Counted from the first letter of the stretch, positions 1 to 37,817 are shown. The stretch: 37,817 nucleotides of DNA from a virus (IMGVR_UViG_3300048577_000138:1-37817), one strand, 5' to 3'. A program made the numbers and translations. The notes: generated from the sequence alone by a model not told the origin.

Positions 1-127
1 GAGATTCCGGCGGCGACGCGGCTGTCGTCGGGGGACATAACGCGGCCGATCAGGCGGCTAGTGAAGTTGGCTTTGGCGACGCTGCCGACGATGGCGCCAA
101 GCGGTTTTTGCGTGGCAGCCAGGACGT
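1..127. repeat. Terminal overlap, copy 1 (identical to 37691..37817)
   Basis: Base-for-base identity read directly. The length equals SPAdes k=127, typical of a circular contig. Confidence 0.95.
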
Positions 128-872
128 TTATATTTTTGCTGCGCCCGATGGCCAGGATGGACGCCAGCCGCTGCATGGTGGATTTCAGGCGGGCTAGTTC
201 GGCCAGTTCGTCGATCACGAGCACCATGCGCGTGCCACGGCGGCCATTGCGGACGCGCAGTTCTTTCTCGCCAAACACCAGGTCAATGGCGTCGGCGGCG
301 CTATCAGCGTCGGTCGCCATGTATCGGGTGTGCGGCAGGCAGGCGAAGGGGGTCAGGTCTTCGTTCTTCAGGTCCACACAGATCAGGTGTAGGTCTTGCG
401 GGTTGGTGTACATGGTGAGTGAGCATAGCATGGCGGTGAGCAGGACGGATTTGCCGCTGCCGGTGGCGCCAGCGATCAGGGTGTGCGGGGTGCGCACCAG
501 GTCGATCACTTCTTCGCTGATCGATCCATCGAAGCCGTAGCTCTGGCCCAGAGCCATTGTGTGCGGAGGGCGGGGCTGCGCACCCATCGGTACGGGCTGG
601 GGGCGCGGGTGGGGCACTTCCAGCGCGAGGGGCATGTGGCGCAGGCGGATGGGGGTGGGCTGGCCGCGGTAGGCGCTGAGGATTTCGGCCAGCTCACGCA
701 GGCGGCTTTCAATGGCGGTGATGCGACCGCCGGCGCGCAGGCTGACGTTGAAGACGATGTAGGAGCGCCCGGCGACGTGGCTGCCGGTTTCGGTGACGGC
801 GGCGCCGATCCGGTAGTCTTTGAAGAAGCGGTTGATCAGGGCGATCTCTTCGTTGGCTTTGTTGGTCTTCAT
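1..872 (-). CDS. FtsK/SpoIIIE-family DNA-translocase-like ATPase, 5' part (gene continues across the circular junction to 37516; 348 aa in total)
   Basis: Not in the ORF track because it leaves the window. Minus-strand ATG at 872-870 overlaps the stop of 869..2644 (ATGA). Translation: MKTNKANEEIALINRFFKDYRIGAAV..., Walker A LIAGATGSGKSVLLTAM, Walker B RMVLVIDELAEL, NINVLAATQKP. The frame is open through nt 1. Confidence 0.8.
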   Translation of the reverse strand, partial: MKTNKANEEIALINRFFKDYRIGAAVTETGSHVAGRSYIVFNVSLRAGGRITAIESRLRELAEILSAYRGQPTPIRLRHMPLALEVPHPRPQPVPMGAQPRPPHTMALGQSYGFDGSISEEVIDLVRTPHTLIAGATGSGKSVLLTAMLCSLTMYTNPQDLHLICVDLKNEDLTPFACLPHTRYMATDADSAADAIDLVFGEKELRVRNGRRGTRMVLVIDELAELARLKSTMQRLASILAIGRSKNINVLAATQKPLGAIVGSVAKANFTSRLIGRVMSPDDSRVAAGI

Positions 873-2644
873 GCCTTGTCTTCCCATGCATAGGTTCCGT
901 TGGCGCCGTGGATGCTGATCGGCAATCCTTGGGCGCGGAGTTGTTCTAATGATACTGCGCCGCCGTCCGCAAGGGCCTTGGCATCATCCCACGCTTTGAA
1001 CATGTCCGACACGTAGCCGCGGGCGATGTCGCGATTGTTTTGCGCTGCCCATTCTCGGAAATCTGCCTGCGCGCCCTGCGGTCGCTGGCTGCGCCACCAG
1101 AACACCAGGTCACGCTTGGGGGCGGACCGAACGTCGAACGGGGGTTCGGGGAGGGGGGGTGTAGGGGTGTTCTCTCCCTGCCGTTCGGTGGCGTTCGGTG
1201 GCGTTCGGTCGTTCGCTCCCTCTGGTGAGGGGCGTTCGGTGGGCGCGGGCAGCAGCCGAACGTGACCGAACGGGGGGAGGCGCTGCAGGAGTTGCGGCAG
1301 GTGGGTGTCGCAATTCCAGGATTGATAGGCGACGCGGCGGTGCATGAATGCGCCGACGGCGGGCAGAGTGTCGGCTTCATACTCCTTGAGCAGCGATGCC
1401 TGCGAGGTGTCGAGCTGGTAAGCCAGGCGCAGTTTGCAGCCGCCGCGCACGATGGCGGGCAGTTTCTCTGGGGCCTGGTCCAACACGACGAAGTGGAACC
1501 CCGTCATGCGCGCCAGCCGGAACATCATTTCGAGCTTGTGATCGACGGCGGCCAGCTTGACGGCGCCGGCCTTCGACGCGGCGATCTCCTCGCGGATGGC
1601 GCCGAATTCCTCAAGCACCACCACGATCTCCGGGCCGGCGGACGCAGGCATCATGCGCCACTCGCCTACGCCGCGCTCTTGCATGAGGCGATGGCGGGCG
1701 GCGTGGACGGCGTAGAGGGCGGCCATCTGATCGCCAAAAATGTAGGCGTCGGTGGGCTGCCATTCGACGTGGCTGGCGAAGGGGCCAAAATCGACGCCGG
1801 CTTTGGGGTCCAGGCAGACGACGTGGTAGCCGTGGCGGGCGGCCAGGAGCATGGTTTGGTAGCCGGTGGATTTTGTTTTGCCCGTGCCGGACACGCCGAA
1901 CACTCCCAGGTTGAGATGCTCTCTTGGCTGCCAGATTGCCAGTTTGCCAGCGTCTGGGTTGTGGCCGAGTACGAATTGATCCGGGTTGGACTGGCGCAGG
2001 GCGTCGCCAAGTTGCAGCGGTTCATCTGGCACCGGTGTCGCCGGCGGTTCGCTGCCGATGACGAGCGGGGCGGGCAGGGCGGGGCGGGTGGGGCGTTCGA
2101 GCATGGGCTTGGCGCTGCCTCCCAGCCCGCCGGTCCGGTAGGTGCTGCCGTTGCTGGTGATGATGGCATCGTCGCCGGGGGTTTTGGCCTGCCACTCGGC
2201 GACTTTGGCGCGGGCGGCGGCGTGGCTGGCGTAGAGTGCGGGGTCGTAGCTGCCCAGCTCGCGCACGCCGCGGCTGCCGATGGCGAGCGCCGGCGCCATC
2301 ATCAGATCGGGATTGACGAGGATTTCGACTTGTTCGCCTGTCGCAGCGTCGCGCACTTTGTAGGTGCGCAGGCGGTGCGATCCGTCGCGCTGCTGGTTGT
2401 AGTTGTGCCAGGCTTTGGCGGCGAAGCGGCCTACCCAGACCAGGCCGGCGCCGGCGGCCAACGCCAGCACGAGGCGCGCGCAGAGGAAGGCCAGGTCGAT
2501 GGCCTGGCGGGTGTACTCGCCAGCGGCGCCGGTGATTGCCGGCATGGAATCCCACGCGCTGATCATCAGGATCGTGATGATCAGCGCGGCGGGTGTGAGG
2601 ACGATCAACAGCAACAGGGAGATCAATTTGTCCAGCGTCTTCAT
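869..2644 (-). CDS. Membrane-anchored FtsK/HerA-superfamily P-loop ATPase (TraB/TcpA-like architecture)
   Basis: 591 aa. Two N-terminal hydrophobic helices (LISLLLLIVLTPAALIITILMISAW; LAFLCARLVLALAAGAGLVWVG). Walker A GVFGVSGTGKTKST and Walker B-like EIVVVLEEFG. A P/T-rich linker precedes a helical C-terminal domain. Confidence 0.75.
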   Translation of the reverse strand: MKTLDKLISLLLLIVLTPAALIITILMISAWDSMPAITGAAGEYTRQAIDLAFLCARLVLALAAGAGLVWVGRFAAKAWHNYNQQRDGSHRLRTYKVRDAATGEQVEILVNPDLMMAPALAIGSRGVRELGSYDPALYASHAAARAKVAEWQAKTPGDDAIITSNGSTYRTGGLGGSAKPMLERPTRPALPAPLVIGSEPPATPVPDEPLQLGDALRQSNPDQFVLGHNPDAGKLAIWQPREHLNLGVFGVSGTGKTKSTGYQTMLLAARHGYHVVCLDPKAGVDFGPFASHVEWQPTDAYIFGDQMAALYAVHAARHRLMQERGVGEWRMMPASAGPEIVVVLEEFGAIREEIAASKAGAVKLAAVDHKLEMMFRLARMTGFHFVVLDQAPEKLPAIVRGGCKLRLAYQLDTSQASLLKEYEADTLPAVGAFMHRRVAYQSWNCDTHLPQLLQRLPPFGHVRLLPAPTERPSPEGANDRTPPNATERQGENTPTPPLPEPPFDVRSAPKRDLVFWWRSQRPQGAQADFREWAAQNNRDIARGYVSDMFKAWDDAKALADGGAVSLEQLRAQGLPISIHGANGTYAWEDKA

Positions 2645-2746
2645 TGCAGCCTACCTTTGCAGGTGGCCGTTGAGGGTGAATCGTGGTACGATTGTCCCCA
2701 GCGGCCTACGTCGCTACGCTCTAGCCCACTCTCTTGACCGGGATGG

Positions 2747-3184
2747 CTAGAGCGTTTCTTTTGCCTCCAACATGGCGAAGTACACGTCGGGGTGGATGCT
2801 CCAGACAATGCGGGCGTCGTCCGGGCGCGGGCTGGTGTCGCCGACAACCTCGCCAGGGGCGGCGGTGGCGCCGGCGGGCGGGGCGGGCGGGGGCATGATG
2901 TGCCACTGGCGACCGGTGAGGGCGCGGGCGCTGAATTGGATGTAGTCCAGAAGCTGCGCCAGGTCCGGGGCGGTGGTCAGCAGCAGGTAGACCAGATCGG
3001 CCTGGATGCGATCATAGACGGTGGCGTGGCGGTCGGCCTCCGTCTCTGCGGGGATCGGCTCGCCATCCACAACGGTGGCCGCGGCGAGCGGTTCGGCGTA
3101 GAGGGCGTTGGCGTTGGCGGCGGATGTGACCAGGCCGTGCAGCAGGGTGATCGTGTGGGTCTGGTAGTCGATGTTGGTGGTCAT
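2747..3184 (-). CDS. Hypothetical acidic protein (145 aa)
   Basis: Track ORF with coding-like composition, in the early operon. No family recognised. Confidence 0.55.
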   Translation of the reverse strand: MTTNIDYQTHTITLLHGLVTSAANANALYAEPLAAATVVDGEPIPAETEADRHATVYDRIQADLVYLLLTTAPDLAQLLDYIQFSARALTGRQWHIMPPPAPPAGATAAPGEVVGDTSPRPDDARIVWSIHPDVYFAMLEAKETL

Positions 3185-3197
3185 GGTGTTGTGTCTC

Positions 3198-3455
3198 CTA
3201 GCGATATTGTGACAGGTTGGGCAGGTCCAGCAGGGGGGCCTGTTCGGGCAGCGATTCCAGCGATTCCAGCAGGCCGGCGGCGCTGGCGGCCTGGATGATT
3301 TTGCTAAGCTCTTGCAGGGCGGCCAGGGCCTGGTCGATCTCCCTGACGGCGGCGCTTTTGCGTGGTTCGGCCAGCACGCGCATTCGCATGGTGCGCTCGG
3401 CTTTGAGCGCGGTTTGGATGGTGCGGTAGTGGGTGCGGGCGTCTTCGATTGTCAT
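3198..3455 (-). CDS. Hypothetical helical protein (85 aa)
   Basis: Track ORF in the early operon. Its start lies 4 nt after the stop of the upstream small ORF. Confidence 0.55.
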   Translation of the reverse strand: MTIEDARTHYRTIQTALKAERTMRMRVLAEPRKSAAVREIDQALAALQELSKIIQAASAAGLLESLESLPEQAPLLDLPNLSQYR

Positions 3456-3459
3456 GCGT

Positions 3460-3564
3460 TCAGCTCCCTGCGCCGGCGACGACGGCCACGAACCCGATTA
3501 GGCCGATGATGCCGACGATCAACATGATGTAAAACATGCCTGAGTAGCCTTCTTGGTCTTCCAC
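3460..3564 (-). CDS. Small single-pass membrane protein (34 aa, GTG start)
   Basis: Hand-translated: VEDQEGYSGMFYIMLIVGIIGLIGFVAVVAGAGS. GGAGA lies 5 nt upstream. It exactly fills the gap between two genes and is below the track size cutoff. Confidence 0.4.
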   Translation of the reverse strand: MEDQEGYSGMFYIMLIVGIIGLIGFVAVVAGAGS

Positions 3565-3565
3565 G

Positions 3566-4801
3566 TCAGTCTCCTTGTGCGATGAATTGGACCGCGGCGG
3601 GGCGGCCTGTGATGATGGTTAGTTTGCGGCTGGCCTGCGGCGCCAGGCGCAGGTTGAGCCATTCGACTTTGTGGCCCGGGGCGGCGGCCAGGAAGCGGTT
3701 GCGCTCGCTGTCGTGCTCCAGCAGCGCAGCGCCGTCCAGATGCTGCGCCAGTTCGGCAGCGAGCTGGCGCCAGGCGTGATCGGGGGTGCCGGGTTCGGGT
3801 TCCGGGTCGGGGCGCTGCAGGGGGCCGGCTGGCAGTTCGTAGCCGGCGGGCACGTAGCGGGTCGCAAGCTGCGCCAGGCTTTCGCCGTCTGCGTCAAGTT
3901 CGTCGCCGGGGGCGCCCATGTGACGCTGCCAGAGGGCGGTGCGGCGGTCGGCGGCGATGACGACCGCGGAAAATTCTTGATGATTGACCAGGCGCTTGAC
4001 CAGGGCGCCGACGCCATGCACGACGCCGGTGTCGAGTTGGCGGCGCCACTCGAACACGTGGGCGGCGATGCGCTGAAACGATAGGCCGGGGGTGGCGGCA
4101 AACTGGCGCGCGGGGCCGGGGGCCATGCCAACGTCGGGGTCGGTGAGCAGGGCGACGACGGCCACCTGGTCGGCGGAAAGGGGTTCGTGGCCGGCGGTTC
4201 CGGCGGTTCCGCCGTTTCCGGGTGGGCCGTGTTTGTTTGTTTGTTTGTTTTTCCCTTCTGAGGATAGGAGAGTACCAACTAACAAACTAACACCGCGCGC
4301 ACTCGCGTGCGTATGAGGTAGCTGATCATCTGGCGCGCGATTCGCGCGTGTGGTGATCATTTCGCGCGCCACGTGATCACTTGGGGGTGCGTCGCCGCCT
4401 TGCGGTTCGCCTTCCGGCGCGCGTGTGGTGATCATTTCGCGCGCTGCGTGATCACCTTGCTCTGCGCCGTCAGCTTGCGGGGTGGTTTGCGGCGCGCGTG
4501 TGGTGATCACTTTGATCGCCTGGTGATCACTTTGATCACTCTGCGCGCGCCAGTTAGCAAACCATATCTGGACGTGGCTGTTGCGCTTGTAGGTCAGGAT
4601 GCCAGCATTTTGCAGCGCGATGAGTTGGGCGCGTGCACGGTCACTGCTGATGCCGCCAGCCACGGCGCACAGGTCGGCATGGGCCAGCAGCAGGGCGCCG
4701 GTTGCGAGGTCGGCGCGCCGGAAGAGGCGCGTGGCGGTGCGGTAGATGTTGGGGCTGATGTCGAGCGCGTCCAGGCGATCAACAAAGCTGGCGAAGTCCA
4801 T
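3566..4801 (-). CDS. Putative replication initiator (lambda O-like logic) with the origin embedded in its coding sequence
   Basis: 411 aa with an N-terminal winged-helix-like domain. The central part encodes three 25-aa peptide repeats (..ITTRAP..) produced by 75-bp-spaced DNA iterons. An AT-rich stretch follows. Confidence 0.6.
   Translation of the reverse strand: MDFASFVDRLDALDISPNIYRTATRLFRRADLATGALLLAHADLCAVAGGISSDRARAQLIALQNAGILTYKRNSHVQIWFANWRAQSDQSDHQAIKVITTRAPQTTPQADGAEQGDHAAREMITTRAPEGEPQGGDAPPSDHVAREMITTRANRAPDDQLPHTHASARGVSLLVGTLLSSEGKNKQTNKHGPPGNGGTAGTAGHEPLSADQVAVVALLTDPDVGMAPGPARQFAATPGLSFQRIAAHVFEWRRQLDTGVVHGVGALVKRLVNHQEFSAVVIAADRRTALWQRHMGAPGDELDADGESLAQLATRYVPAGYELPAGPLQRPDPEPEPGTPDHAWRQLAAELAQHLDGAALLEHDSERNRFLAAAPGHKVEWLNLRLAPQASRKLTIITGRPAAVQFIAQGD
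4231..4292. repeat. AT-rich microsatellite patch next to the iterons: (GTTT)5 at 4231-4250 and AACTAACA x2 at 4277-4292 (candidate DNA-unwinding element)
   Basis: Read directly. This is the most AT-rich stretch inside an otherwise GC-rich gene. Confidence 0.5.
4322..4540. repeat. Iteron array (putative ori): GCGCGTGTGGTGATCA-type units at 4344, 4419 and 4494 (75-bp period), with 8 or more TGATCA/GATC boxes
   Basis: Read directly. GCGCGTGTGGTGATCATTTCGCGCGC occurs twice (4344-4369, 4419-4444), with a variant copy at 4494. GGTGATCAC/CGTGATCAC boxes start at about 4352, 4372, 4427, 4447, 4502 and 4522. Confidence 0.65.
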
Positions 4802-4804
4802 GCC

Positions 4805-6460
4805 CTAGTCCAGTTTTCTCACTGCGTGGCGCACGTGGGCGGCGATTTCATCGAGCATGTTGGCGAGTTCGTCGTGCCAGCCGCCAAGCACTGACTTGGC
4901 GGCCTTGAGGCTGGTGAGGGCGTCGCCAAGATGTATGCGGGCGACGGCGAAGGCGGTGGCCTCGTCGTCGTCGATACCGTCACTGGCGGCGGTGACGCCG
5001 GCGGCCTCGCTGGGTGTGGCGGCGTCGGCTGGGAGTTGGCCGGGACGGGTGGCGCGTTCCGCTTCGTAGCGTTCCTTGCGGTACAACCGGCTAGCGGCCT
5101 CTTGCACGCTAAATGCCCGATTGTCGAAAATCTGCGTTGCGATCCGCGCTGCAACGCGCCAGCGAGTGAATCGATTGAGTTCGTTCATGAAGTTGATGCC
5201 GGGCGCGCTCGTGTTCTGCCACCTGTCGTTCAGAGCGGCGTACTCCGCTTCGTCGTCGCTGTTCCAATCTGCGTAGCCTTCCCAGGTGTGGCAATCAATG
5301 CCGACGGTGAGTACCCGCGTCGGGAGCGGCGCGGCGGGCTGGTGGACGCGCCCGCCAGGCAGGCCGGGCGGAACCCAGGCCGGGGCAGCGCTCTCATACT
5401 GGCGCTCGGTTGGCGCTGGCGCTGGCGCTGCGTCGGCGTCCATCTGCTCGGCGACGCGGATCATCGCGTTTACGACGCGCGTCTGTGACCAGGCGCCGGG
5501 GTGGGCGGTTTCGACGTTCGCCATGATGGTGTCAAAGAGCCAATGGCCTCTGCGCTGCCGGATGGCGGACCGCAGGTCGCTGGCTTTGAGGTTGGGACGC
5601 GCGGCGATCAGTTTGCACAGGTCGTCGTATGTGGGCGGGGTGGCGGCGCGCTTGATCGGGATGTCGATTGGGGCCGCGGCTATCGGTGCGGATGGCGGGG
5701 CTGCCGGCGGTGGAGCTGGGGCGGCCTGGCGGCGCTTCAGCTCCTGTTCTAGCGTGTCGGCTACGTTGTTGATGGCCTGCACCAGGTCGCGGCGGCGGTA
5801 TTCGATGCCGGCCTGCTCCAGGGCTTCCTCTACATCGTGTAGCAGGGCGCTGCCGGTTGTTCGGGCGGCGGCGCGCATGGCGCTGATCCATGTGGCGGAC
5901 TGCTTGCCGTCCGGCCATTTTTGAGCGATGACGCTGCCGACCTTGCTCTGAATCTCCCAGACCGATGCGTAGGAGGGCGGCGCGGGCTTGTGTTTGTCGA
6001 TCACTGCCTGCACCTGCGTCTTGGTGGGGCTGGCGCCGGCGGCCTGGGCCGCGTCGATCACTTCCTGCCGGGCCTCTTCGGGGACGGAGGGGCCGCTGAG
6101 CAGGTAGAGGGCGCTGTCGGACAAAAACGACACGGTGTCGCTTTTGCCGCCGAATGTCTCGGCCACGGCCATCATGCGCTGGGCGGTGCGCAGGCTCATT
6201 TCGAACTCGGTCTGGCACCAATCCGAAAACTGGCCGTGCGGCAGCATCTCTTTGACGGTGGCGAGGCGCTGGCCGATGTCGATCAGGGATTCCTGCGCCT
6301 TGCGACCGCTGCGCACGATGGCGACGGCGGCGGCCTGCACGTGGCTGCGGCTGGCTTCGGCAATCTGGCTGTAGTCATAGCGCAGGCTGGCGCGGATGGC
6401 GCTGTCCGGGCTGCCTAGCAGGTCGCCGAGTATGTCGGGCACTTGTGGGCGGGATGGCAT
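4805..6460 (-). CDS. DUF3102-domain protein (551 aa)
   Basis: The N-terminal segment LIDIGQRLATVKEMLPHGQFSDWCQTEFEMSLRTAQRMMAVAETFG...LSDSALYLLSGPSVPEEARQEVI matches the remembered DUF3102 pattern. Pro/Ala-rich linkers follow. AAGGAG RBS. Confidence 0.7.
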   Translation of the reverse strand: MPSRPQVPDILGDLLGSPDSAIRASLRYDYSQIAEASRSHVQAAAVAIVRSGRKAQESLIDIGQRLATVKEMLPHGQFSDWCQTEFEMSLRTAQRMMAVAETFGGKSDTVSFLSDSALYLLSGPSVPEEARQEVIDAAQAAGASPTKTQVQAVIDKHKPAPPSYASVWEIQSKVGSVIAQKWPDGKQSATWISAMRAAARTTGSALLHDVEEALEQAGIEYRRRDLVQAINNVADTLEQELKRRQAAPAPPPAAPPSAPIAAAPIDIPIKRAATPPTYDDLCKLIAARPNLKASDLRSAIRQRRGHWLFDTIMANVETAHPGAWSQTRVVNAMIRVAEQMDADAAPAPAPTERQYESAAPAWVPPGLPGGRVHQPAAPLPTRVLTVGIDCHTWEGYADWNSDDEAEYAALNDRWQNTSAPGINFMNELNRFTRWRVAARIATQIFDNRAFSVQEAASRLYRKERYEAERATRPGQLPADAATPSEAAGVTAASDGIDDDEATAFAVARIHLGDALTSLKAAKSVLGGWHDELANMLDEIAAHVRHAVRKLD

Positions 6461-6462
6461 GA

Positions 6463-6648
6463 CTACTCCTTTGCTTCCTGCGCTGCGGGCGGCTCCAGGG
6501 CGGCCAGGCGCTTGCGCAGCAGGGCGATCTCGGTGGCTGCGGCCAGGATGGTTGAGCGCGGCACGGGCGGCACGGCGAAGGCGTTTTCGGGCGTCAGGAT
6601 CAGGATGCGATTGAGTTTGGATAGGATGTCGCTGGGACTGTTGGTCAT
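6463..6648 (-). CDS. Hypothetical protein (61 aa)
   Basis: Only the last 61 codons of track ORF 6463..7047 look coding: MTNSPSDILSKLNRILILTPENAF.... ATG at 6648 with a GAGGA RBS. The stop lies 2 nt before the next start. Confidence 0.5.
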   Translation of the reverse strand: MTNSPSDILSKLNRILILTPENAFAVPPVPRSTILAAATEIALLRKRLAALEPPAAQEAKE

Positions 6649-6658
6649 GGTCGGGTCC

Positions 6659-7063
6659 TCACTTGCTGTAAAAGTCTTCGTCACGGTGGCTGCCGGTGAG
6701 CAGGTTCTCGGTGTAGTAGCGGGCGCGCCAGTCCTGGATTGCGCCGGGGTGGCTGGCGTTGGGGCGCAGAGGGCTGCGCGGGGAGGTGGCGCCGGCGAGC
6801 ACTTCGTAGTTGTAGGCGCCGAGCGCGCCGAAGTAGCGTCGCTGGGCGCGGTCGTCTCCGCCGAAATGCCGGCGCACCATGACGCGCCAGCCCTTGCGGG
6901 CGATGGCTTTGCGGCGGCGTTTGCTGAGTGCCTGCGCGCGGGCGCGGCCTCCGGCGGATGATATGCGGTTGTTGCGCACGAAGCGACCGCGGTTGTCGCG
7001 TTCACGGGGTGGCGCGGGATCGGGAAAATCGGTGACAAGTGGAACACTCTCTGGTATACTCAT
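6659..7063 (-). CDS. Basic hypothetical protein, first gene of the early operon (134 aa; alternative TTG start at 7093)
   Basis: Track ORF 6659..7093 with the first ATG at 7063. It has an Arg/Lys-rich segment, GGRARAQALSKRRRKAIARKGW. Confidence 0.55.
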   Translation of the reverse strand: MSIPESVPLVTDFPDPAPPRERDNRGRFVRNNRISSAGGRARAQALSKRRRKAIARKGWRVMVRRHFGGDDRAQRRYFGALGAYNYEVLAGATSPRSPLRPNASHPGAIQDWRARYYTENLLTGSHRDEDFYSK

Positions 7064-7097
7064 GGTGCAAATGTCTTTCGGGCGATTGCCCAACTCT

Positions 7098-7140
7098 GCC
7101 GCCGCGGTGCGCTATCACCGCGGCGGCGCTGTTTTGTTGG
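7098..7140 (+). terminator. Intrinsic-terminator-like hairpin, plus-strand orientation, upstream of int
   Basis: Perfect 12-bp stem GCCGCCGCGGTG/CACCGCGGCGGC with loop CGCTAT, followed by GCTGTTTTGTT. Confidence 0.5.
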
Positions 7141-7376
7141 GTGGCGGGGGCTATCCGCCGGAAATGCCGTGCCGTCGCAACTGGCGGGCTGCGGCGGCCC
7201 TGTGTGGGTCTGACGGTGACAAGTGCCGGTTGTCGTGCGTTGATCCGTCAGGCCCACAAAGGGAAGATCATCAACGTTTGGTCAATGTCTTCGTGGTAAA
7301 CTGGTGACGCTGCTCCCCACGAGTAGGCGCCGCCAGGTGTACCCCAACCATCCCCAACGGTAGACTGGAGGCATGT

Positions 7377-8291
7377 ATGCACGCCATTGATTCTGCTATC
7401 CGCACGTTTCTGGCGATTAAGCGAGCGGAACGCCGTTCGCCGGTGACGGTGCGTAGTTATGAGCAGTTGCTCGGTCTGTTTCGGGCCTCTTTGCCGCCGG
7501 AGGTGATGGCGGTGGAGGAGATTACGACGGAGCAGTGTGCGGCGTTCCTGGCCGCCGAGGAGGGGCGCAAGCTGAATGCGCCGGGGTCGCCAGATCGACA
7601 CATGAAGGCGACTTCACTCGCTGCCCGTTACCGGGCGATGCGGGTTTTTTTGCGTTGGTCTAGCGAGACGTACAAGTTTGCTAATCCGCTGGTGTTCAAG
7701 GCGCCGAAGATCGACATTGAGCCGCCGCGCCGGGCATCCAACGAGGATGTTGAGGCGCTGCTGGCGTCGATTGACGGTGACGGCTGGCTGGATTTTCGCG
7801 ACCGGGCGATTGTGCGGCTGCTGCACGGGACAGGGCTGCGGGTGCAGGAGTGTGCGAGCCTGGCGCTCAATGATCTGGACGTGGCGAAGCGCCTGGTCTA
7901 TGTGGCGGACGGGAAGGGCGGGAAGGCGCGCTATGTGCCGTTTACGCCGGGGGTGGCGATGCACCTGCTGGCGTACCTGCTGAACCGTCCAGCGTGGTCG
8001 GGTCGTGAGTTGCTGCTGGGGTCGGTGAATCGCCACGGGGTTCCGCATGGGCCGCTGACGGCGAATGGCATCCGGCAGATGCTGAAGCGGAGGTGCAGGG
8101 CGGCCGGGATTGCGTACATCAATCCGCATAGCCTGCGCCATCTGTTTGCGACGAAGGCGCTGAATGATGGCATCCCGCTGAGTGCTGTGTCTACGATGAT
8201 GGGGCACGCATCGACGGATTTCACGGCCCGTGTCTATGCCAAGTGGCTGACGGATGGGCTGGTGGCGATCTACGATGCGCACTGGAAGTAA
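7377..8291 (+). CDS. int: Tyrosine recombinase / phage integrase (XerC/D-like)
   Basis: 304 aa with a SAM-like N-terminal domain. Catalytic-region motifs: LLHGTGLRVQE, HSLRHLFAT, GHASTDFTARVY. GGAGG RBS. Confidence 0.93.
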   Translation: MHAIDSAIRTFLAIKRAERRSPVTVRSYEQLLGLFRASLPPEVMAVEEITTEQCAAFLAAEEGRKLNAPGSPDRHMKATSLAARYRAMRVFLRWSSETYKFANPLVFKAPKIDIEPPRRASNEDVEALLASIDGDGWLDFRDRAIVRLLHGTGLRVQECASLALNDLDVAKRLVYVADGKGGKARYVPFTPGVAMHLLAYLLNRPAWSGRELLLGSVNRHGVPHGPLTANGIRQMLKRRCRAAGIAYINPHSLRHLFATKALNDGIPLSAVSTMMGHASTDFTARVYAKWLTDGLVAIYDAHWK

Positions 8292-8344
8292 GCAGCAGCT
8301 AATCGGTAATTATCTGCTGTGCTCGCTGCCAGCATGGTAGATAC

Positions 8345-8724: not shown

Positions 8725-8753
8725 ACAATACACCCATTGTCTTGTGTCGTCAA
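8725..8753 (-). promoter_or_regulatory. Candidate promoter for the HTH gene (minus strand TTGACG-N17-TATTGT), overlapped by an operator-like repeat
   Basis: The -35 is the complement of 8748-8753 and the -10 the complement of 8725-8730. The inverted repeat ATTGTGA(8704-8710)/TCACAAT(8723-8729) and the direct repeat TTGTGAG x2 lie across it. Confidence 0.4.
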
Positions 8754-8794
8754 GCCCTAATTTCGACGATCATCACGCCGCAAGGAGTGCCCCT

Positions 8795-9160
8795 ATGAAC
8801 ACCAACATGATGGAATACGATGCTCGTAAGAAGAGTATGCTGCTGGCGTACCTGGCCTGGGCCTTTCTGGGCGGGCTGGGCGTCCATCGGTTCTACCTGA
8901 ACCGCACGGGGTCGGGCGTCGCGCAGCTTCTGCTCACGGTGTTTGGCTGGTTTACCCTACCGCTGGGCATCGGCATGTTCTTGCTGGGCGGCCTGGCGAT
9001 CTGGCTCTTCGTCGATCTGTTCCTCGTCGCGGGCATGGTGAGCGAGTACAACCTGGCACTGGCGCGCAGTCTCCAGCCTGCGCCACGGCCAGCAGCAACG
9101 GCTGCGCTGATGCAGCCGCCGAAGCAGACTCCGCCGGACTTGCACAAGTGGGCGGATTAG
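8795..9160 (+). CDS. TM2-domain membrane protein
   Basis: KSMLLAYLAWAFLGGLGVHRFYLNRTGSGVAQLLLTVFGWFTLPLGIGMFLLGGLAIWLFVDLF matches the TM2 pattern. ATG at 8795 with AAGGAG 7 nt upstream (the track start 8744 is less likely). Confidence 0.8.
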   Translation: MNTNMMEYDARKKSMLLAYLAWAFLGGLGVHRFYLNRTGSGVAQLLLTVFGWFTLPLGIGMFLLGGLAIWLFVDLFLVAGMVSEYNLALARSLQPAPRPAATAALMQPPKQTPPDLHKWAD

Positions 9161-9166
9161 CAGCCC

Positions 9167-9655
9167 CTACAGCGCGCTGCCCAGGGCGATCACGAGGATG
9201 CCGGCGACCTGCAGGACGAGCAGCCAGGTCCCCAGCGTGACGTAGCGGGCTTTGCGCTCGTTGGCGGCAATGTTGGCCTTGATGGCGTCGGACAGGTTGA
9301 TTAGCACTTGGTTGTAGGCGTCGTCCAGTTCCTTGCTGATGTAAAGGTCAAAGAAGTTGTCCCAACTTAATGAGCCTACATATTTGTGTTCGCTAGGGCG
9401 CCAAGCAAGGACGGCGCAAATAGTCATGCCGATGAAAGCCACGAAGCCTGTGGCGGCGCCGGCCAGCACCCAGGGCATGGTCGAGTTCGTCACGAGCGAT
9501 GGCAGCGTGGTGGCGCCGACGAGGGCGATGATGAGGCTGCCGGCCTGCAAGATGGCAGCGGCCTTGCCGTCCAGGTGCTCGCCGGTGCGGTCGATGTTGT
9601 CGTAAAGACGCTGTGTCTGTTCCAACACGAGATTTTGTTGTGTAGTTAGTCCCAT
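9167..9655 (-). CDS. Three-TM membrane protein, possibly Pycsar-effector/DUF5706-like
   Basis: 162 aa. Layout: N-terminal helix with LDGKAAAILQAGSLIIAL, a second TM, a cytosolic helical segment ending in ...NERKARY, then a C-terminal TM. The family call is from memory of the profile, not a search. Confidence 0.55.
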   Translation of the reverse strand: MGLTTQQNLVLEQTQRLYDNIDRTGEHLDGKAAAILQAGSLIIALVGATTLPSLVTNSTMPWVLAGAATGFVAFIGMTICAVLAWRPSEHKYVGSLSWDNFFDLYISKELDDAYNQVLINLSDAIKANIAANERKARYVTLGTWLLVLQVAGILVIALGSAL

Positions 9656-11103: not shown

Positions 11104-11825
11104 TCGGCGTGGTACTGCTGCTGGCGCTGCTGCCGCTGCCGGCGGGTGCGCAGTCAGGCTGCACGGTGCGCGTGGAGGCGGGGCGGATCGTGGTGGCTGG
11201 CTGCGTTGTGGTGACGGCGACGCCGGCGCGCACGGCGACGGCGACCAGGACGCCAACGCCAACGGCGACGGTTACACCCACGGCCACGGCCACGGCCATG
11301 GAGACGCCCCAGCCAGCCCGCCATGCACTGGGGCCGGAATGGGGCGGCGACGTTGGCGGCTACTACTCGGATGGCCAGCGGCTGCGGGTGGCCGGCGGCG
11401 GGGCGATCTTCTGGTTGGAGCAATTCGGGGCGGCGCAGGAGGCGTTTGTGACGCTGGCGCAGATTGATCGCACGAGCACGGGACTGGCGCTGCTGTTGCT
11501 GAGCGAGGCGGCGGGCAGTCCGCACCCCAGCGTGCTGGCGGTGCGCTACGACCCGCGTAGTGGCACTCTTCAGCCGCTGCACACGCTGGCCGGCGGATGG
11601 CATAGTTTGGGCGCGCCGGTTGCGGCGGCGTTTGCGCCGGGCGATCAGTTTGGGGCGCGGTATGCGGATGGTGTGCTGACGGCCTGGCGCAATGGTGTCG
11701 AGGTGGCTCGATGGCGTGTGGAGCCGGCGTGGTTTGCGCCTCCGCCGGCTGGCTATACAGGGCTGATGACGGATGCGGCGCCGGGCTGGGCACTGGACGA
11801 TTTTGGCGGGGGCACGCTGCCATGA
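11082..11825 (+). CDS. Secreted protein: signal peptide, Thr/Pro-rich linker, ~170-aa jelly-roll (LamG/ConA-like?) domain
   Basis: MQKQAGLIGVVLLLALLPLPAGAQS signal, TATPARTATATRTPTPTATVTPTATATA linker, C-terminal domain ending ...GWALDDFGGG. ATG at 11082 within track ORF 11067..11825. Confidence 0.65.
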   Translation: MQKQAGLIGVVLLLALLPLPAGAQSGCTVRVEAGRIVVAGCVVVTATPARTATATRTPTPTATVTPTATATAMETPQPARHALGPEWGGDVGGYYSDGQRLRVAGGGAIFWLEQFGAAQEAFVTLAQIDRTSTGLALLLLSEAAGSPHPSVLAVRYDPRSGTLQPLHTLAGGWHSLGAPVAAAFAPGDQFGARYADGVLTAWRNGVEVARWRVEPAWFAPPPAGYTGLMTDAAPGWALDDFGGGTLP

Positions 11826-12151
11826 CTGGTAAGCGCGTGCGGTCGCCCGTGGTGCATCGCGGCACAATCCTGGAGATGACGCCGCGTGAGCGCCGCGTGC
11901 TGGTCTATGTGGTGGCGGGCATGGACCACGACACGATCAGCCAGGCGCTGCGCATCCATCGCAGCACGACGATCACGTATATCGACCGTTTCAACCGCAT
12001 GGCCGGCGCTCACAACCGCAACCAGTTGGCGGCGTGGGCCATTGTCACCGGGCTGGTGGCGCCGGCGGAGATCTGCGAGCTGTGGCTGCGGCACGGCCTG
12101 CACGAGCTGGTGGCCTGGCTGGACTATGCAGAGGTGGAGGTGGTGGGGTGA
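11822..12151 (+). CDS. LuxR/GerE-family HTH transcriptional regulator
   Basis: MTPRERRVLVYVVAGMDHDTISQALRIHRSTTITYIDRFNRMAGAHNRNQLAAWA matches the LuxR C-terminal HTH pattern. ATG at 11822 overlaps the upstream stop (ATGA). Confidence 0.72.
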   Translation: MTGKRVRSPVVHRGTILEMTPRERRVLVYVVAGMDHDTISQALRIHRSTTITYIDRFNRMAGAHNRNQLAAWAIVTGLVAPAEICELWLRHGLHELVAWLDYAEVEVVG

Positions 12152-12243: not shown

Positions 12244-12467
12244 GCAGCCGCAGGGCGCAGCGCAGGCGGGCGTGCCAGGGTAAGCGCCGGCTGCCGGACG
12301 CTGATGTGGCGTGGCGGGTGGCCAGGCTGATGACGCAACGGCATGGGGAGTTGTTGCTGGCGTATCGGTGCACGTGGTGCGGGTGCTGGCATGTGGGGCA
12401 TCCGTCACGTAGGCAGGCGCAGAGTTATATGGCGAGGAGGGCGAATCGTGCCGCAGAGGCCAGTTAG
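12240..12467 (+). CDS. Small Cys-rich (Zn-ribbon-like) protein (75 aa)
   Basis: In the frame of track ORF 11886..12467 from GTG 12240. Contains ACQGKRRLP ... YRCTWCGCWHVGH. Confidence 0.4.
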   Translation: MSSRRAQRRRACQGKRRLPDADVAWRVARLMTQRHGELLLAYRCTWCGCWHVGHPSRRQAQSYMARRANRAAEAS

Positions 12468-12795
12468 TGCGTGCCGGAGGCCTGGATGTGCGGGCGTGGT
12501 GCGGGATGGCGTGTGCAGTTTGTGTGGGCCGCTGCGCAGGGCTGGGCAGGTTGCGCACGACGAGCGGCGCGGGACGGCTGCGCAGCGTGGCTACGGCGGG
12601 CGCTGGCAGCGGGTGCGGCTGATGTTCCTTCGGTCGCATCCATTGTGCGCGGACTGCGCGAGCCGCAACCAGGTCACGCCGGCCACGGACGTGCACCACG
12701 TGGTGGCCAGGCGGGACGGCGGCGGCGACGAGGAGGGCAACCTGCTGGCGCTGTGCCACTCGTGTCATAGCAAGCGCACCCAGGCCGGCGAGTAG
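12448..12795 (+). CDS. HNH endonuclease (terminase-associated)
   Basis: CRRPGC...CSLC and HPLCADC...DVHHVV...NLLALCHSCHSKRT. GTG at 12448 with a GAGGAGG RBS. It lies directly upstream of terS, as in HK97-like cos phages. Confidence 0.85.
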   Translation: MPQRPVSACRRPGCAGVVRDGVCSLCGPLRRAGQVAHDERRGTAAQRGYGGRWQRVRLMFLRSHPLCADCASRNQVTPATDVHHVVARRDGGGDEEGNLLALCHSCHSKRTQAGE

Positions 12796-12896: not shown

Positions 12897-13406
12897 GTGG
12901 GACGGCGGGGACCGGCGCCAAAGCCGACGGCGATCAAGCGATCATCGGGGAATCCGGGGAAGCGGGCGCTGAACGGGGCGGAACCGCAGTTCAGCCGCCA
13001 GGCGCCGCCTTGCCCGAAGCACCTGGCGGGGGAGGCGCGCAAGGAGTGGCGGCGCATTGTGCGGGAGTTGGTGCAGACGCCGGGGCTGCTGCAGGTGGTG
13101 GACCGGGCGGCGCTGGCGGCGTACTGCCAGGCGTGGGCGCGCTGGGTGGAGGCAGAGCAGAAGATGCAGGCGCCCGACTTCACCATGATCGAGGTGACGG
13201 ACAAAGGGTATGCTCACGTGAATCCGTGGTTCCAGGTGAGCACGCAGGCGCAGAAGCAGATGAAGGCGTTTCTGACGGAGTTCGGGTTGACGCCGGCGAG
13301 CAGGGCGCGGATTCAGGTCGCGGAGCGGGGCGAAGAGGATGAGTTCGACGAGTTTGTCAGGGCCAAGCCAGGGGCCAAGCCCGGCGGCAGGCCCGGCAAC
13401 GAGTGA
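12897..13406 (+). CDS. terS: Terminase small subunit, P27 family
   Basis: MGRRGPAPKPTAIKRSSGNPGKRALN...CPKHLAGEARKEWRRIVREL...DRAALAAYCQAW matches the P27-family pattern. Confidence 0.9.
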   Translation: MGRRGPAPKPTAIKRSSGNPGKRALNGAEPQFSRQAPPCPKHLAGEARKEWRRIVRELVQTPGLLQVVDRAALAAYCQAWARWVEAEQKMQAPDFTMIEVTDKGYAHVNPWFQVSTQAQKQMKAFLTEFGLTPASRARIQVAERGEEDEFDEFVRAKPGAKPGGRPGNE

Positions 13407-13467
13407 CGATGACCTGATCGCTGCGGTTGGCGTGCTGCCGGGCTGGGCACAGGAGAGCCCAGCCGAG

Positions 13468-15132
13468 ATGTACATTACCAACGTAATTACTGGCAAACAG
13501 TTGGCGTGCAAGTGGGTGCGGCTGGCGTGCGAGCGGCATCGCCGTGACCTGCTGCATGGGCCGGAGCGGGGGCTGTGGTTTGACCCGGAGGCTGGCCAGC
13601 ACATCATTGATTTTGCCCGGTTCTGCCGGCATGTAAAGGGGCGTTGGGCGAACCAGGTTGTGGTGCTGGAGCCGTGGCAGCAGGCGCTGCTCTGGATTCT
13701 GTTCGGATGGATGCGGGCGGATGGGGCGCGGCGGTTTCGGTCCTCCTATTGGGAGATGGCGCGCAAGAACGGGAAGTCCCTGGTGGGGGCGATCATCGGG
13801 CTGTATGGGCTGGTGGCGGATGGGGAGGGGGGCGCGGAGATCTACGCGGCGGCGACGAAGCGGGAGCAGGCGAAGGAGGTGTTTACGCCGGCCTGGCTGA
13901 TGGCGAAGAAGTCTCCGGCGCTGAAGAAGCGGCTGACGTGTTACCGGGACAATATTCACATCAAAAATACGGCGTCGAAGTTCGAGCCGGTGGGGCGAGA
14001 TTCGGATACGGCGGATGGGTCGAATCCGCACATTGCGCTGGTGGATGAGCTACACGCTCACCGCGATGATGGAATGTGGGGTGTGCTAGAGACAGGGATG
14101 CGCAGCCGCTGGCAGCCGCTGATGTTTGGGATCACGACGGCGGGTTTCAACCAGGCGTCATGGTGCTATGAGCTGCGCCGGTATGCGACGCAGGTGCTGG
14201 ACGGGATTGTCGTCGATGACGCGTTTTTTGCGATCATTTTTACGCTGGACCGCGAGGATATTGAGCGGCCTGACGGCTGGATGGATGAGACGCTGTGGAT
14301 TAAGTCGAATCCGAACCTCGGGGTTTCGATTGATCTGGAGGGGTTGCGGGCGGCGGCTGTGCGGGCCAAGGCGATGCCGAGCGCCAAGGGCCAGTTCCTC
14401 ACCAAGAGCCTGTCGGTGTGGACCAATGCCGGTGTACAGTGGATTCCGGCGGAGCGGTGGTCGCAGTGTTCGGGGGAGGTGGACGAGGCGGCGCTGGCGG
14501 GGCGGCCCTGCTATGGAGGGCTGGATCTGTCGAGTACGTTCGACCTGACGGCGCTGGCGTGGGTGTTTCCTCCGTATGGTGACGATCCGCTGTACCGGGT
14601 GGTGATGAGGTTCTGGGCGCCGGAGGCGGCGATTGCGGAGCGGATGCGCCAGCAGCGGGCGAGTTATGCGACGTGGCAGGCGCAGGGGTTTATTGAGATG
14701 ATCCCTGGCGAGGTGATCGACTATGAGTATATCTACCGGCAGATCGAGCAGGATGCGACACAATTTGATGTGAAGCGGGTGGCGTTTGACCGCTGGGGGG
14801 CAAGCCAAATATATGTGCGACTGACGGCGGCTGGGATCGAGATGGTGCAGTTTGGCCAGGGGTTTGCCAGTATGTCGTCTCCGATGAAGGAGTTGGAAAA
14901 GTTGATCCGGGCGCGGGGGCTGGCGCATGGGGGGCACCCGGTGCTGGCGTGGAATATGCACAATCTGATTGCGACGAAGGATCCGGCGGGGAATATCAAG
15001 CCGGATAAGAAGCTGTCGGTGGAGAAAATCGACGGCGGCGTGGCGCTGATCATGGGGCTGGCGGGGGCGACGCTGCATGATGCGGAGGCGGCTAAATCGG
15101 TCTATGACGAAAGGGGGGTGAGGGTGTTATGA
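13468..15132 (+). CDS. terL: Terminase large subunit
   Basis: 554 aa from ATG 13468 (AGGAGA RBS; the track ORF starts at 13339). Contains a Walker-A-like MARKNGKS and ALVDELHAH, and shows the typical Terminase_1 layout. Confidence 0.9.
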   Translation: MYITNVITGKQLACKWVRLACERHRRDLLHGPERGLWFDPEAGQHIIDFARFCRHVKGRWANQVVVLEPWQQALLWILFGWMRADGARRFRSSYWEMARKNGKSLVGAIIGLYGLVADGEGGAEIYAAATKREQAKEVFTPAWLMAKKSPALKKRLTCYRDNIHIKNTASKFEPVGRDSDTADGSNPHIALVDELHAHRDDGMWGVLETGMRSRWQPLMFGITTAGFNQASWCYELRRYATQVLDGIVVDDAFFAIIFTLDREDIERPDGWMDETLWIKSNPNLGVSIDLEGLRAAAVRAKAMPSAKGQFLTKSLSVWTNAGVQWIPAERWSQCSGEVDEAALAGRPCYGGLDLSSTFDLTALAWVFPPYGDDPLYRVVMRFWAPEAAIAERMRQQRASYATWQAQGFIEMIPGEVIDYEYIYRQIEQDATQFDVKRVAFDRWGASQIYVRLTAAGIEMVQFGQGFASMSSPMKELEKLIRARGLAHGGHPVLAWNMHNLIATKDPAGNIKPDKKLSVEKIDGGVALIMGLAGATLHDAEAAKSVYDERGVRVL

Positions 15133-15941: not shown

Positions 15942-15942
15942 T

Positions 15943-16248: not shown

Positions 16249-16292
16249 GGGGTTGACGGCGGTCGCGGCCTGGTGACGGCGACGGGGGAGTG

Positions 16293-16499: not shown

Positions 16500-16506
16500 G
16501 CCGCTG

Positions 16507-35420: not shown

Positions 35421-35421
35421 G

Positions 35422-36920: not shown

Positions 36921-37037
36921 CTACTCGTCGTATAACGACCTGAACGCGTCGATGATATTGCTCTCCACCCACAAGGCTGCGGCGACGGCGACGGCGACGC
37001 ACGCGGCAGCCAGGGCTACACTGATTATATGCCTCAT
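36921..37037 (-). CDS. Small signal/TM peptide (38 aa)
   Basis: Hand-translated: MRHIISVALAAACVAVAVAAALWVESNIIDAFRSLYDE. Below the track cutoff. Confidence 0.3.
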   Translation of the reverse strand: MRHIISVALAAACVAVAVAAALWVESNIIDAFRSLYDE

Positions 37038-37107
37038 ACGCGCTTGGCCTTGCGCAAACCGATGCGCCAAGCGTCGCCCAGGGTGATGGTGATGGTGAGG
37101 GCGTTGG

Positions 37108-37515: not shown

Positions 37516-37817
37516 TTACTCCTTTGCGCTGGCGATGACTGCGGGCAGTTCAAGTTGTTTGCACCAACGATCTAGGATCGGCTGCGTCCAGGTGTCTGCG
37601 TCTACGTAGTACGCTTGGAAGCGGCGCACGTCCATGCCTTCGACACGCAGGAAGGCGCCCTGGCCGGGGAGGTATTCGGCGCCTACGCCTGAGATTCCGG
37701 CGGCGACGCGGCTGTCGTCGGGGGACATAACGCGGCCGATCAGGCGGCTAGTGAAGTTGGCTTTGGCGACGCTGCCGACGATGGCGCCAAGCGGTTTTTG
37801 CGTGGCAGCCAGGACGT
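37516..37817 (-). CDS. FtsK/SpoIIIE-family ATPase, 3' part (same gene as 1..872; nt 37691-37817 duplicate nt 1-127)
   Basis: The frame is continuous with 1..872 across the junction. The C-terminus reads ...SRLIGRVMSPDDSRVAAGISGVGAEYLPGQGAFLRVEG..., a typical FtsK motor-domain end. The track only shows it as a 70-aa ORF, 37516..37728. Confidence 0.8.
   Translation of the reverse strand, partial: VLAATQKPLGAIVGSVAKANFTSRLIGRVMSPDDSRVAAGISGVGAEYLPGQGAFLRVEGMDVRRFQAYYVDADTWTQPILDRWCKQLELPAVIASAKE
37691..37817. repeat. Terminal overlap, copy 2 (identical to 1..127)
   Basis: Base-for-base identity with the window start. Confidence 0.95.

Follow-up and report, generated by a model that had tools for sequence, protein, structure and literature searches.

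A predicted membrane-anchored FtsK-like ATPase of temperate siphoviruses with a short repeat array inside its own gene: a possible Tra/clt-like DNA translocase

The viral contig IMGVR_UViG_3300048577_000138:1-37817 (37,817 nt; hereafter the window, i.e. the whole stretch of DNA that was analysed) carries two adjacent genes for FtsK-like ATPases, both on the minus strand. The first encodes a 591-aa protein with two N-terminal transmembrane (TM) helices, called TM-FtsK below, and the second a soluble 348-aa protein. The two genes overlap by GCATGAAG at 869-872, the start of the 348-aa gene at 872 overlapping the stop of the 591-aa gene. As the window ends with the same 127 nt with which it begins (1-127 = 37691-37817), the contig corresponds to a circular genome of 37,690 bp. 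This genome is that of a bona fide temperate siphovirus, with 64.8% G+C. A preliminary description of this DNA had reported two FtsK-family P-loop genes with an ATGA overlap and characteristic motifs, and all of these are present at the residues concerned. The span that it gave, 1-2644, takes in both genes but omits the last 175 nt of the 348-aa gene, which lie on the other side of the circle junction. The coordinates of all features are collected in Table 1.

From its N-terminus, TM-FtsK presents a TM hairpin, an FtsK-like ATPase core, a P/T-rich linker and a helical C-terminal domain. This is the TraB/TcpA-type layout already proposed in the preliminary description, TcpA being the nearest solved relative. 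In the AlphaFold model, the N-terminal helices lie at residues 2-29 and 31-86, the core is good (residues 210-400) and the linker is disordered, with a predicted local distance difference test score (pLDDT) <50 for residues 469-494. Two N-terminal hydrophobic segments are found in 90 out of 122 long family members, and a juxtamembrane segment (RDGSH...LRTY...NPDLM) is strongly conserved in the family. The Walker A motif (GVSGTGKTKS) corresponds to aa 250-259 (nt 1868-1897), the Walker B motif (VVVLEEFG) to aa 341-348 (nt 1601-1624), and a DQxP motif is encoded at nt 1463-1483. Residues G250, G253-T257, E345, E346, R376, R379, D389 and Q390 are invariant in the family.

Profile searches had been proposed in the preliminary description as a check on both proteins. 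They place the 348-aa protein in PF01580; the single TM-FtsK sequence has no Pfam match, and 25 of 39 spread members of its family do match PF01580 (best E=1e-9). With the family profile, the match in the PDB is TcpA (6o1x; E=5e-11). With the TM-FtsK model, Foldseek retrieved TcpA, EssC and FtsK at E=1e-8 to 1e-10 (TcpA, E=2e-10), and phage models labelled 'DNA translocase FtsK' were matched in BFVD. The only NCBIfam match is plasmid TraB (NF041214; 28.7 bits, E=4.7e-7). It concerns the ATPase core only, the corresponding positions being 223-347 and 222-355. By its sequence, TM-FtsK is not a member of the TraB family. The gamma domain (PF09397), carried by full-length cellular FtsK proteins, was not matched by either window protein.

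A profile search among 1.84 billion cluster representatives gave 1,342 matches with E<1e-3, 175 of them with E<1e-30, and family members are nearly all 530-650 aa long. Only 24 close relatives were obtained in a word-indexed protein search, and the same type of search with an alignment of distant members returned just the known close relatives and cellular FtsK proteins. No homologue was detected with tblastn in a collection of 50,697 phage records, and no relative in a GTDB genome scan with the family alignment. Wherever the context was examined, the family members are located on siphovirus contigs. On these search results, TM-FtsK is a real family of ~1,300 clusters, unnamed in current databases.

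The helical C-terminal domain (96 aa) is a candidate DNA-recognition domain. Modelled alone with AlphaFold (pLDDT 82.7), it forms a three-helix bundle with a fourth helix and a beta-hairpin. It has no match in a PDB sequence search. Weak Foldseek matches, none of them significant, are mostly helix-turn-helix (HTH) or winged HTH (wHTH) regulators, so that an HTH or wHTH fold is only suggested by the model. The winged helix envisaged in the preliminary description is therefore not established.

A repeat target for this domain, which the same description had recommended looking for, may be present within the TM-FtsK gene itself. Nine copies of CGAACG/CGTTCG, distributed on both strands, form an array that lies within the DNA coding for the disordered linker, and six of the nine are ACCGAACG. 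All six genomic copies of ACCGAACG lie within these 147 bp, for 1.07 expected genome-wide, and this number was reached in 0 out of 100 shuffles. The array also contains 9 of the 29 CGAACG/CGTTCG hexamers of the genome. Its copies are spaced by 7-12 nt (period of 10 with TRF) and occur in all three reading frames, one DNA word being translated as T-E-R, P-N-A or N-D-R depending on the frame. Because the copies are found on both strands and in all three frames, the conserved element is the DNA and not a peptide repeat. At the centre of the array lies a CACCAGAGG core with a C-rich tract. The array ties as the densest 6-mer cluster of the genome; the other top regions are a common CGCCGC-type run and the iterons of the putative origin. 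In a genome-wide search for strand-skewed motifs resembling the FtsK orienting polar sequences (KOPS), no over-represented 7-10-mer stood out.

We then examined the corresponding region in related genes, whose loci are designated by L numbers. Arrays of the same kind (CGAACG, 9-13 copies) accompany a C-terminal domain of type A in L092, L001, L005, L003 and L103; compared with the remainder of the locus concerned, their p-values are 1e-11 to 1e-17. With a type B domain, L093 and L094 carry GTTCATGG / CCATGAAC; L095, of domain type C', carries six CCGTTCC and one inverted copy, and L104, of domain type A', GTCCGTCC... / GGACGGAC. A weak array or none was found in L102, L097, L098, L101, L096, L099 and L100, whose domains are of types A, B or C. 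In L094, L095 and L104, the left and right copies are oppositely oriented around a central core, TCACCAGAGGTAG followed by a C-rich tract, whose window version is TCACCAGAGGGAG at ~1210-1222. This core, exact or slightly changed, is common to 10 of the 17 genes examined (besides the window, it was seen in L001, L003, L005, L093, L094, L095, L103 and L104). It occurs with all three domain types, even between genes whose proteins are ~30% identical. It always retains a rare GTA valine codon, which would be a sign of constraint at the DNA level.

The array and the C-terminal domain change together. The relatives P0013, P0014 and P0016 are 67-69% identical to TM-FtsK over the first 80% of its length, after which the linker and the C-terminal domain switch together. 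Moreover, at the nucleotide level, the window and L093 cease to be homologous at 1242, on the edge of the array. As both elements switch together and the homology breaks at this edge, the array and the domain travel as one cassette. Such a joint exchange is what a binding site and the domain that reads it would be expected to show.

An IMG/VR scan for ACCGAACG-N0-4-ACCGAACG gave at least 120 stretches, the family members among the matches listed being L112 and L149. This dimer pattern was rejected as a tracer of the system, as it is not specific enough. In L149 (IMGVR_UViG_3300048623_000045), a distant FtsK-like open reading frame (ORF) at 6391-8336 (E=3e-10 to the TM-FtsK family profile) directly adjoins a cluster of eight CGAACG/CGTTCG copies, and this locus may be an independent case of the gene-plus-array logic.

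Table 1. Position of the features described in the text (window coordinates)
Feature	Position	Strand	Remark
TM-FtsK gene, 591 aa, synteny family F2	869..2644	-	
TM hairpin of TM-FtsK, ~aa 3-75, two helices	2420..2638	-	Hydrophobic 19-mers starting at aa 3 and aa 47
FtsK-like ATPase core of TM-FtsK, aa 210-450	1295..2017	-	
C-terminal 96-aa domain of TM-FtsK, aa 496-591, type A	872..1159	-	Candidate DNA-recognition domain
Array of nine CGAACG/CGTTCG copies	1126..1272	both	Candidate clt-like loading site
348-aa gene	complement(join(37516..37690,1..872))	-	Exactly 348 aa across the circle junction
348-aa gene, 5' part, aa 1-291	1..872	-	
348-aa gene, 3' part	37516..37817	-	37691-37817 duplicates 1-127
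g145, 145 aa, synteny family F9	2747..3184	-	Immediately upstream of TM-FtsK
g85, 85 aa, small helical protein, synteny family F6	3198..3455	-	Conserved
g411, 411 aa, likely replication initiator, synteny family F0	3566..4801	-	
65-aa protein, one N-terminal TM helix	37312..37509	-	Directly downstream of the 348-aa gene
Zinc-ribbon protein, 58 aa	37108-37284		Early operon
49-aa (or 38-aa) single-TM protein	36921..37070	-	Same early operon
Xer-like tyrosine integrase, 304 aa	7377-8288		Phage_int_SAM_1 and Phage_integrase
TM2-domain membrane protein	8744-9157		PF05154, E=3e-15
LuxR/GerE-type HTH protein	11711-12148		Just upstream of the HNH-TerS genes; E=2e-7
HNH endonuclease gene	12343-12792		
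TerS gene	12897-13403		
TerL gene	13339-15129		

The 348-aa protein is, by its sequence, a canonical FtsK alpha/beta motor without anchor or DNA-reading gamma domain. It was correctly described beforehand as a soluble FtsK motor: it matches PF01580 (FtsK_SpoIIIE) with 79.1 bits for a cut-off of 24 (E=4e-22) and has neither a TM segment nor a gamma domain. Its Walker A motif (GATGSGKS) corresponds to aa 135-142 (nt 447-470) and its Walker B motif (VLVIDELAE) to aa 217-225 (nt 198-224). The beta-domain signatures AATQKP (nt 102-119), KANF..R and GAEYLPGQGAFL are present. It also matches phrog_1358, the PHROG 'FtsK/SpoIIIE-like protein' (E=1e-40), and FtsK 2iuu in the PDB (E=5e-22), in an alignment that spans the last part of the alpha domain and the beta domain; EccC and EssC are among its best PDB and NCBIfam matches. 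Genes ~30% identical over 90% of its length were found with tblastn in 275 phage records (Bacillus 176, Mycobacterium 52, others), where they are annotated 'FtsK-like DNA translocase'. The function of such phage genes is acknowledged as unknown (PMC3335513), and an FtsK/SpoIIIE gene has been recorded in an induced Chloroflexus-associated virus (PMC8597652). A soluble FtsK gene by itself is thus ordinary in terminase-packaging phages. The soluble part of the module that the preliminary description called uncharacterised thus has annotated homologues in cultured phages.

Both genes are carried by 6 of ~19 related contigs, the remainder having the 591-type gene alone. The two genes are adjacent in the window and L092, separated by one or two genes in L001 and L005/L091, and probably both present in two more contigs. 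TM-FtsK stands alone in L003, L093 and L094, as well as in 10 out of 10 distant IMG/VR contigs, 4 of which share the tape-measure and tail genes of the window. Conversely, a 348-type gene without TM-FtsK was found in L012, which is plasmid-like (integrase, initiator-like protein and, by eye, ParA- and ParB-like proteins), in L016, which is a phage (TerL read by eye), and in the L010/L014 element described below. The two genes are therefore no obligatory pair, which weakens the paired system suggested in the preliminary description. In the relatives, the gene order begins with an integrase (opposite strand), two small genes, a DUF3102 protein and an initiator-like protein, and continues with g85, g145, TM-FtsK, an optional soluble FtsK gene and variable small genes converging on the tail genes. 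TM-FtsK is always located one to four genes downstream of the initiator-like gene (family F0). TM-FtsK is a conserved core early gene of this phage lineage and the soluble motor is an add-on; the 348-aa protein would be an optional auxiliary motor acquired by some members of the lineage. In L016, methyltransferase-like and ThyX-like ORFs (216-1730 and 4030-5955) are apparently interrupted by intein- or HNH-like insertions (by eye). A homology between the window ORF 6463..7047 and an ORF of L005 was rejected, as it looks like a wrong-frame low-complexity artefact.

The likely initiator g411 has in one relative a counterpart carrying HTH_36. Within g411, an array at 4323-4540 consists of some eight iterons of 20 nt, which share a GTGATCA core, follow a super-repeat of 75 nt and encode the repeated peptide (H)AAREMITTRAP. 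By analogy with lambda O, this array is probably a replication origin within the initiator gene. The 364-aa initiator-like protein of L012 has a comparable internal repeat (TGDTDAAP). Since g411 marks it as such, the TM-FtsK module belongs to the replication/early operon. Homologues of g145 occupy the same position in L001 and L005, and g145 has no family match in Pfam and PHROG scans. Homologues of g85 were also found in L094 and, with a six-frame search, in L012. On the other side, the small membrane-protein genes noticed beforehand downstream of the ATPase genes are present with one TM helix each, and they have no family matches in Pfam; their likeness to Spd proteins, proposed in that description, is tentative. 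Among the ~40 ORFs scanned, no relaxase or type IV secretion system (T4SS) family was found, in agreement with the preliminary description, and no P-loop ATPase was recognised besides TerL and the two FtsK-like proteins.

To approach the host, GTDB was scanned with the 348-aa family. The 79 loci retrieved belong almost all to metagenome-assembled genomes (MAGs) of Chloroflexota, with 45-56% identity in Caldilineaceae and 32-40% in Anaerolineales and Thermoflexales. In addition, L015, binned in Caldilineaceae (64.6% G+C), carries tail genes very close to those of the window (E=6.5e-148). Bacteria of the Caldilineae and Anaerolineae grow as multicellular filaments. On these homologies, the probable host is a septate, filamentous member of the Chloroflexota (Caldilineaceae/Anaerolineae), and the filamentous host supposed at the outset fits this distribution.

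About 60 of the 79 loci are chromosomal (MAGs of Anaerolineae/Thermoflexales; L017-L090, e.g. L061 9307-10838). There, the gene for a short FtsK-like protein (~330-450 aa, lacking TM segments and a gamma domain) invariably stands just before one for 'c1', a two-TM protein of 138 aa whose small membrane protein family is specific to Chloroflexota. The neighbours of this module, read by eye in representative sequences, resemble lexA, recA, radA and holA. We know of no description of this FtsK-c1 module of Anaerolineae. A second FtsK-like gene lies nearby in L030, where it is long (~768 aa), and in L048. Homologues of c1 were also found near TM-FtsK in L005 at 5709-6065 (= L091 ~9030-9385) and in L094 at 9251-9652 (E=2e-20 and E=1e-22), the latter without a soluble FtsK gene; a weak one is present in L103 (11602-11934), and none in the window. 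The TM-FtsK, soluble FtsK and c1 families are thus associated pairwise in different genomes. The c1 homologues of these phages also support a host among the Chloroflexota.

The 45%-identical homologue of the 348-aa protein on a Caldilineaceae contig belongs to a small integrative element at tRNA-Lys (L010 8482-17500, = L014; Caldilineaceae bacterium H76_764, 129-kb contig). The tRNA-Lys is followed in this element by an integrase gene and two small genes, then by the gene of a soluble FtsK-like protein (481 aa) whose C-terminus bears an HTH-like extension, by iterons (two 19-bp sets at 12674-12765 and 13046-13104) and by the gene of a 1076-aa PrimPol-type protein. Its layout resembles that of an actinomycete integrative and conjugative element (AICE), but in Chloroflexota. 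No att repeats of this element were found at seed 12.

We compared this organisation with known FtsK-like systems. In Streptomyces, clt sites span 50-175 bp, consist of 7-9-bp repeats located at or overlapping the 3' end of tra, and differ between replicons. TraA of pWTY27 has two TM domains, and the 3' end of its gene overlaps with a clt of 175 bp composed of direct and inverted 7-bp repeats; the clt of pJV1 has nine 9-bp repeats; TraB of pSVH1 forms hexameric pores and reads 8-bp repeats with a C-terminal wHTH (PMC3583192, PMC4447253). The Spd proteins are too diverse to be recognised by sequence (PMC4447253). Like TM-FtsK, the Tra proteins of these plasmids (pSVH1, pWTY27, pJV1, pIJ101) combine N-terminal TM segments with a single FtsK-like ATPase. 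They end in a DNA-recognition domain, whose putative counterpart in TM-FtsK is the candidate domain, with a wHTH fold only suggested. The clt sites and the phage arrays both appear as short direct or inverted repeats, lineage-specific and located in the 3' part of the gene. Neither system has a relaxase or a T4SS, both are accompanied by small, poorly conserved downstream genes with overlapping stops and starts, and both would operate in septate filaments, of Actinomycetota in one case and of Chloroflexota in the other. However, Streptomyces TraB and TM-FtsK resemble each other in sequence only within the ATPase core, the latter is carried by a temperate tailed phage with terminase packaging instead of by a plasmid or an AICE, and the array lies within the linker-coding region whereas clt lies at or after the end of the gene.

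TcpA (pCW3 of C. perfringens) is the closest solved structure to TM-FtsK, both by profile and by fold. In it, two TM domains at the N-terminus precede an FtsK-like ATPase, and it operates together with other Tcp transfer proteins and a relaxase-type system. None of its partners (relaxase; T4SS with a VirB4-like ATPase, a VirB6-like channel and a hydrolase) was found in the window. To our knowledge, TcpA has no cis repeat array within its own gene. The cellular FtsK/SpoIIIE proteins share with the 348-aa protein an alpha/beta motor with all the beta-domain motifs, and their loading directed by 8-bp KOPS or SpoIIIE recognition sequences (SRS) parallels the phage array. Nevertheless, they have a four-TM anchor and a gamma domain, whereas TM-FtsK has two TM helices and neither phage protein has a gamma domain; the phage genes are much shorter, and the genome-wide skewed motifs of cellular FtsK have no equivalent found in the phage. 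In B. subtilis, the soluble SftA and the membrane-bound SpoIIIE are paralogues that act together on the same DNA. The FtsK-like proteins of cultured phages (Mycobacterium cluster J, e.g. Omega and Optimus; Bacillus cereus group) are soluble and motor-only, like the 348-aa protein. Unlike the window phage, these phages have no TM-FtsK homologue, and we know of no report of a cis array with their FtsK-like genes. The protein of the Anaerolineae FtsK-c1 module is 32-40% identical to the 348-aa protein but is set among housekeeping genes. Finally, EccC/EssC of type VII secretion systems (T7SS) have three tandem ATPase domains, against one per phage protein.

The explanation that we favour, with a probability that comes close to an even chance, is that TM-FtsK translocates dsDNA at the membrane in a Tra/clt-like, sequence-directed manner, with the phage's own DNA as its substrate. 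The two N-terminal helices would anchor to the membrane an ATPase ring, probably hexameric, that faces the cytoplasm. The C-terminal helical domain would recognise the ACCGAACG-type repeats within its own gene, and the ring would load at the array and pump phage DNA at or through the membrane. DNA binding, hexamer formation and pumping are thus predicted from the architecture of the protein and its gene. The direction and the purpose of the DNA movement are more speculative: the system might handle phage DNA at septa, and possibly deliver genome copies into neighbouring cells of the filament. Because the host is probably filamentous and septate, DNA handling at septa would be the most likely purpose. 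In the strongest form of this reading, which we consider improbable, the translocase would load on the array after infection or induction in one cell and pump genomes across septa into neighbouring cells, so that the phage would spread along the filament with no extracellular step. Such a movement apparatus would be the equivalent, in a tailed phage, of the TraB-driven intramycelial spreading of plasmids, with a phage/AICE hybrid lifestyle.

Several observations weigh against this translocase. The Walker B motif of TM-FtsK has EE instead of DE, and its TraB match lies far below the equivalog cut-off (28.7 vs. 800 bits). The C-terminal domain has no significant fold match in the PDB with Foldseek (best E=1.9). 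No clear array was found in the linker region of 7 out of 17 family genes, the co-variation of array and domain concerns few independent lineages, and all array motifs contain a GAAC core, so that differences in specificity may be modest. The small downstream genes are not conserved among relatives, and no GntR-type Kor/TraR regulator was found among the ORFs scanned, whereas the Streptomyces systems have TraR/Kor. The host assignment comes from MAG binning and homology only. Furthermore, TM-FtsK is an early gene beside an initiator, in tailed phages that already spread by virions, and an intracellular role is equally compatible with this position. As phages of unicellular hosts also possess soluble FtsK-like genes, the 348-aa gene needs no filaments.

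The two proteins might handle DNA inside the cell in the manner of FtsK, SpoIIIE or SftA, with no export to other cells: they would protect replicating phage DNA or concatemers against trapping or cutting at closing septa, distribute copies to daughter cells, or assist the XerC/D-like integrase in multimer resolution. This is doubtful, though the most probable of the alternatives considered. Both proteins belong to the FtsK family, their genes lie within the replication operon, the integrase of the phage is Xer-like, and the chromosomal short FtsK-like gene of ~60 Anaerolineae MAGs encodes a relative of the 348-aa protein. The pair formed by SftA and SpoIIIE in B. subtilis offers a precedent. 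A link between a phage FtsK gene and lysogenic recombination was suspected by the authors of Bacillus phage studies (PMC3335513). However, neither protein has the gamma domain, which is the XerD-activating and KOPS-reading part, and an integrating prophage does not need its own partition. The single local array, with no skewed genome-wide KOPS-like 8-mer found, is what one would expect of a loading or clt site more than of a guidance system. TM-FtsK could otherwise organise replication, tethering the replicating genome to the membrane via the array and using its ATPase for replisome loading or DNA remodelling. Its constant proximity to the F0 initiator-like gene points in this direction, and so does the outcome of the Pfam and PHROG scans, which revealed no helicase, primase or polymerase in the phage. 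Yet FtsK-fold rings are pumps for dsDNA or proteins and not replicative helicases or loaders, the phage has a separate, typical iteron origin inside the initiator gene, and the closest solved relative of TM-FtsK is a conjugative coupling protein; such a role is quite unlikely.

A function in conflicts, by which the ATPases would block or drive out competing or superinfecting DNA, or act against a host defence, has a very small probability. In PADLOC, both proteins weakly matched mad8 (348-aa protein, E=1e-20; 591-aa protein, E=1e-4) and the 348-aa protein also weakly matched SspH (E=3e-17), but only in the generic FtsK ATPase region, and the defence reading was rejected on this ground. Moreover, the genes belong to an early lytic/replication operon and not to a lysogeny module, TM-FtsK is a conserved core gene and not a variable moron, and a cis array on the phage's own DNA designates self as the target. 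Least probable of all, with hardly any chance, is the export of a small phage protein by a split EccC-type ATPase composed of a membrane part and a soluble part. EccC and EssC do figure among the best matches of the 348-aa protein, split EccCa/EccCb gene pairs exist, and a small helical 85-aa protein is encoded upstream. Nonetheless, no WXG100, EccB/D or EssB family was detected in the window proteins, each of the two ATPases has one ATPase domain and not three, and this reading was rejected for these reasons. In addition, the T7SS equivalog scores of the window proteins are at most 72.6 bits for cut-offs of at least 346, the 348-aa protein keeps the FtsK alpha-domain region and the beta motifs of DNA translocases, and a DNA repeat array accompanies the gene.

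Phage FtsK-like genes have been annotated for two decades without a known role, and the present case provides a concrete handle. A conserved putative membrane pump with a matching DNA site in its own gene, both exchanged as a cassette, is the signature expected of a sequence-directed translocase. If DNA does move between the cells of a filament, this would be a new route of viral spread in multicellular bacteria, and the relaxase-free dsDNA transfer logic of Streptomyces would exist outside Actinomycetota, adopted by viruses. Even if the role is intracellular, a sizeable unannotated phage family and a regulatory DNA element in the region coding for a disordered linker would be new.

Concerning the rest of the genome, the packaging genes listed in the preliminary description (TerS, TerL and HNH endonuclease) were confirmed. 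Genes for the portal, the prohead protease and an HK97-type major capsid protein were all recognised, and a tape measure protein and a 1456-aa fibre are also encoded. The nearest TerL is 42% identical, and no cultured phage close at the DNA level was found by megablast with 12 kb of the window. No tRNA gene or Rfam family was found in the window, and searches of the whole genome with Pfam and PHROGs revealed neither an endolysin nor a holin. A stretch of 1.3 kb (15567-16930), between the post-TerL gene and the portal gene, is without recognisable genes; the region 34317-35739 was noted together with it.

The GC skew of the + strand is positive (0.06-0.40) over nearly the whole genome, including 1-8000 with its minus-strand genes, and falls below 0 only at 36-37 kb. 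As it is also positive across these minus-strand genes, the asymmetry is independent of the direction of transcription; unidirectional replication may be its cause. Finally, the 18-nt sequence CGCTCACGGCTGCACCTC is found at three successive junctions of small early genes (35888-35905, 36226-36243 and 36480-36497). On the coding strand, it reads '...E-V/A-Q-P stop' and overlaps a GTG or ATG start preceded by GAGG, forming a cassette for translational coupling that recurs at each of these junctions.

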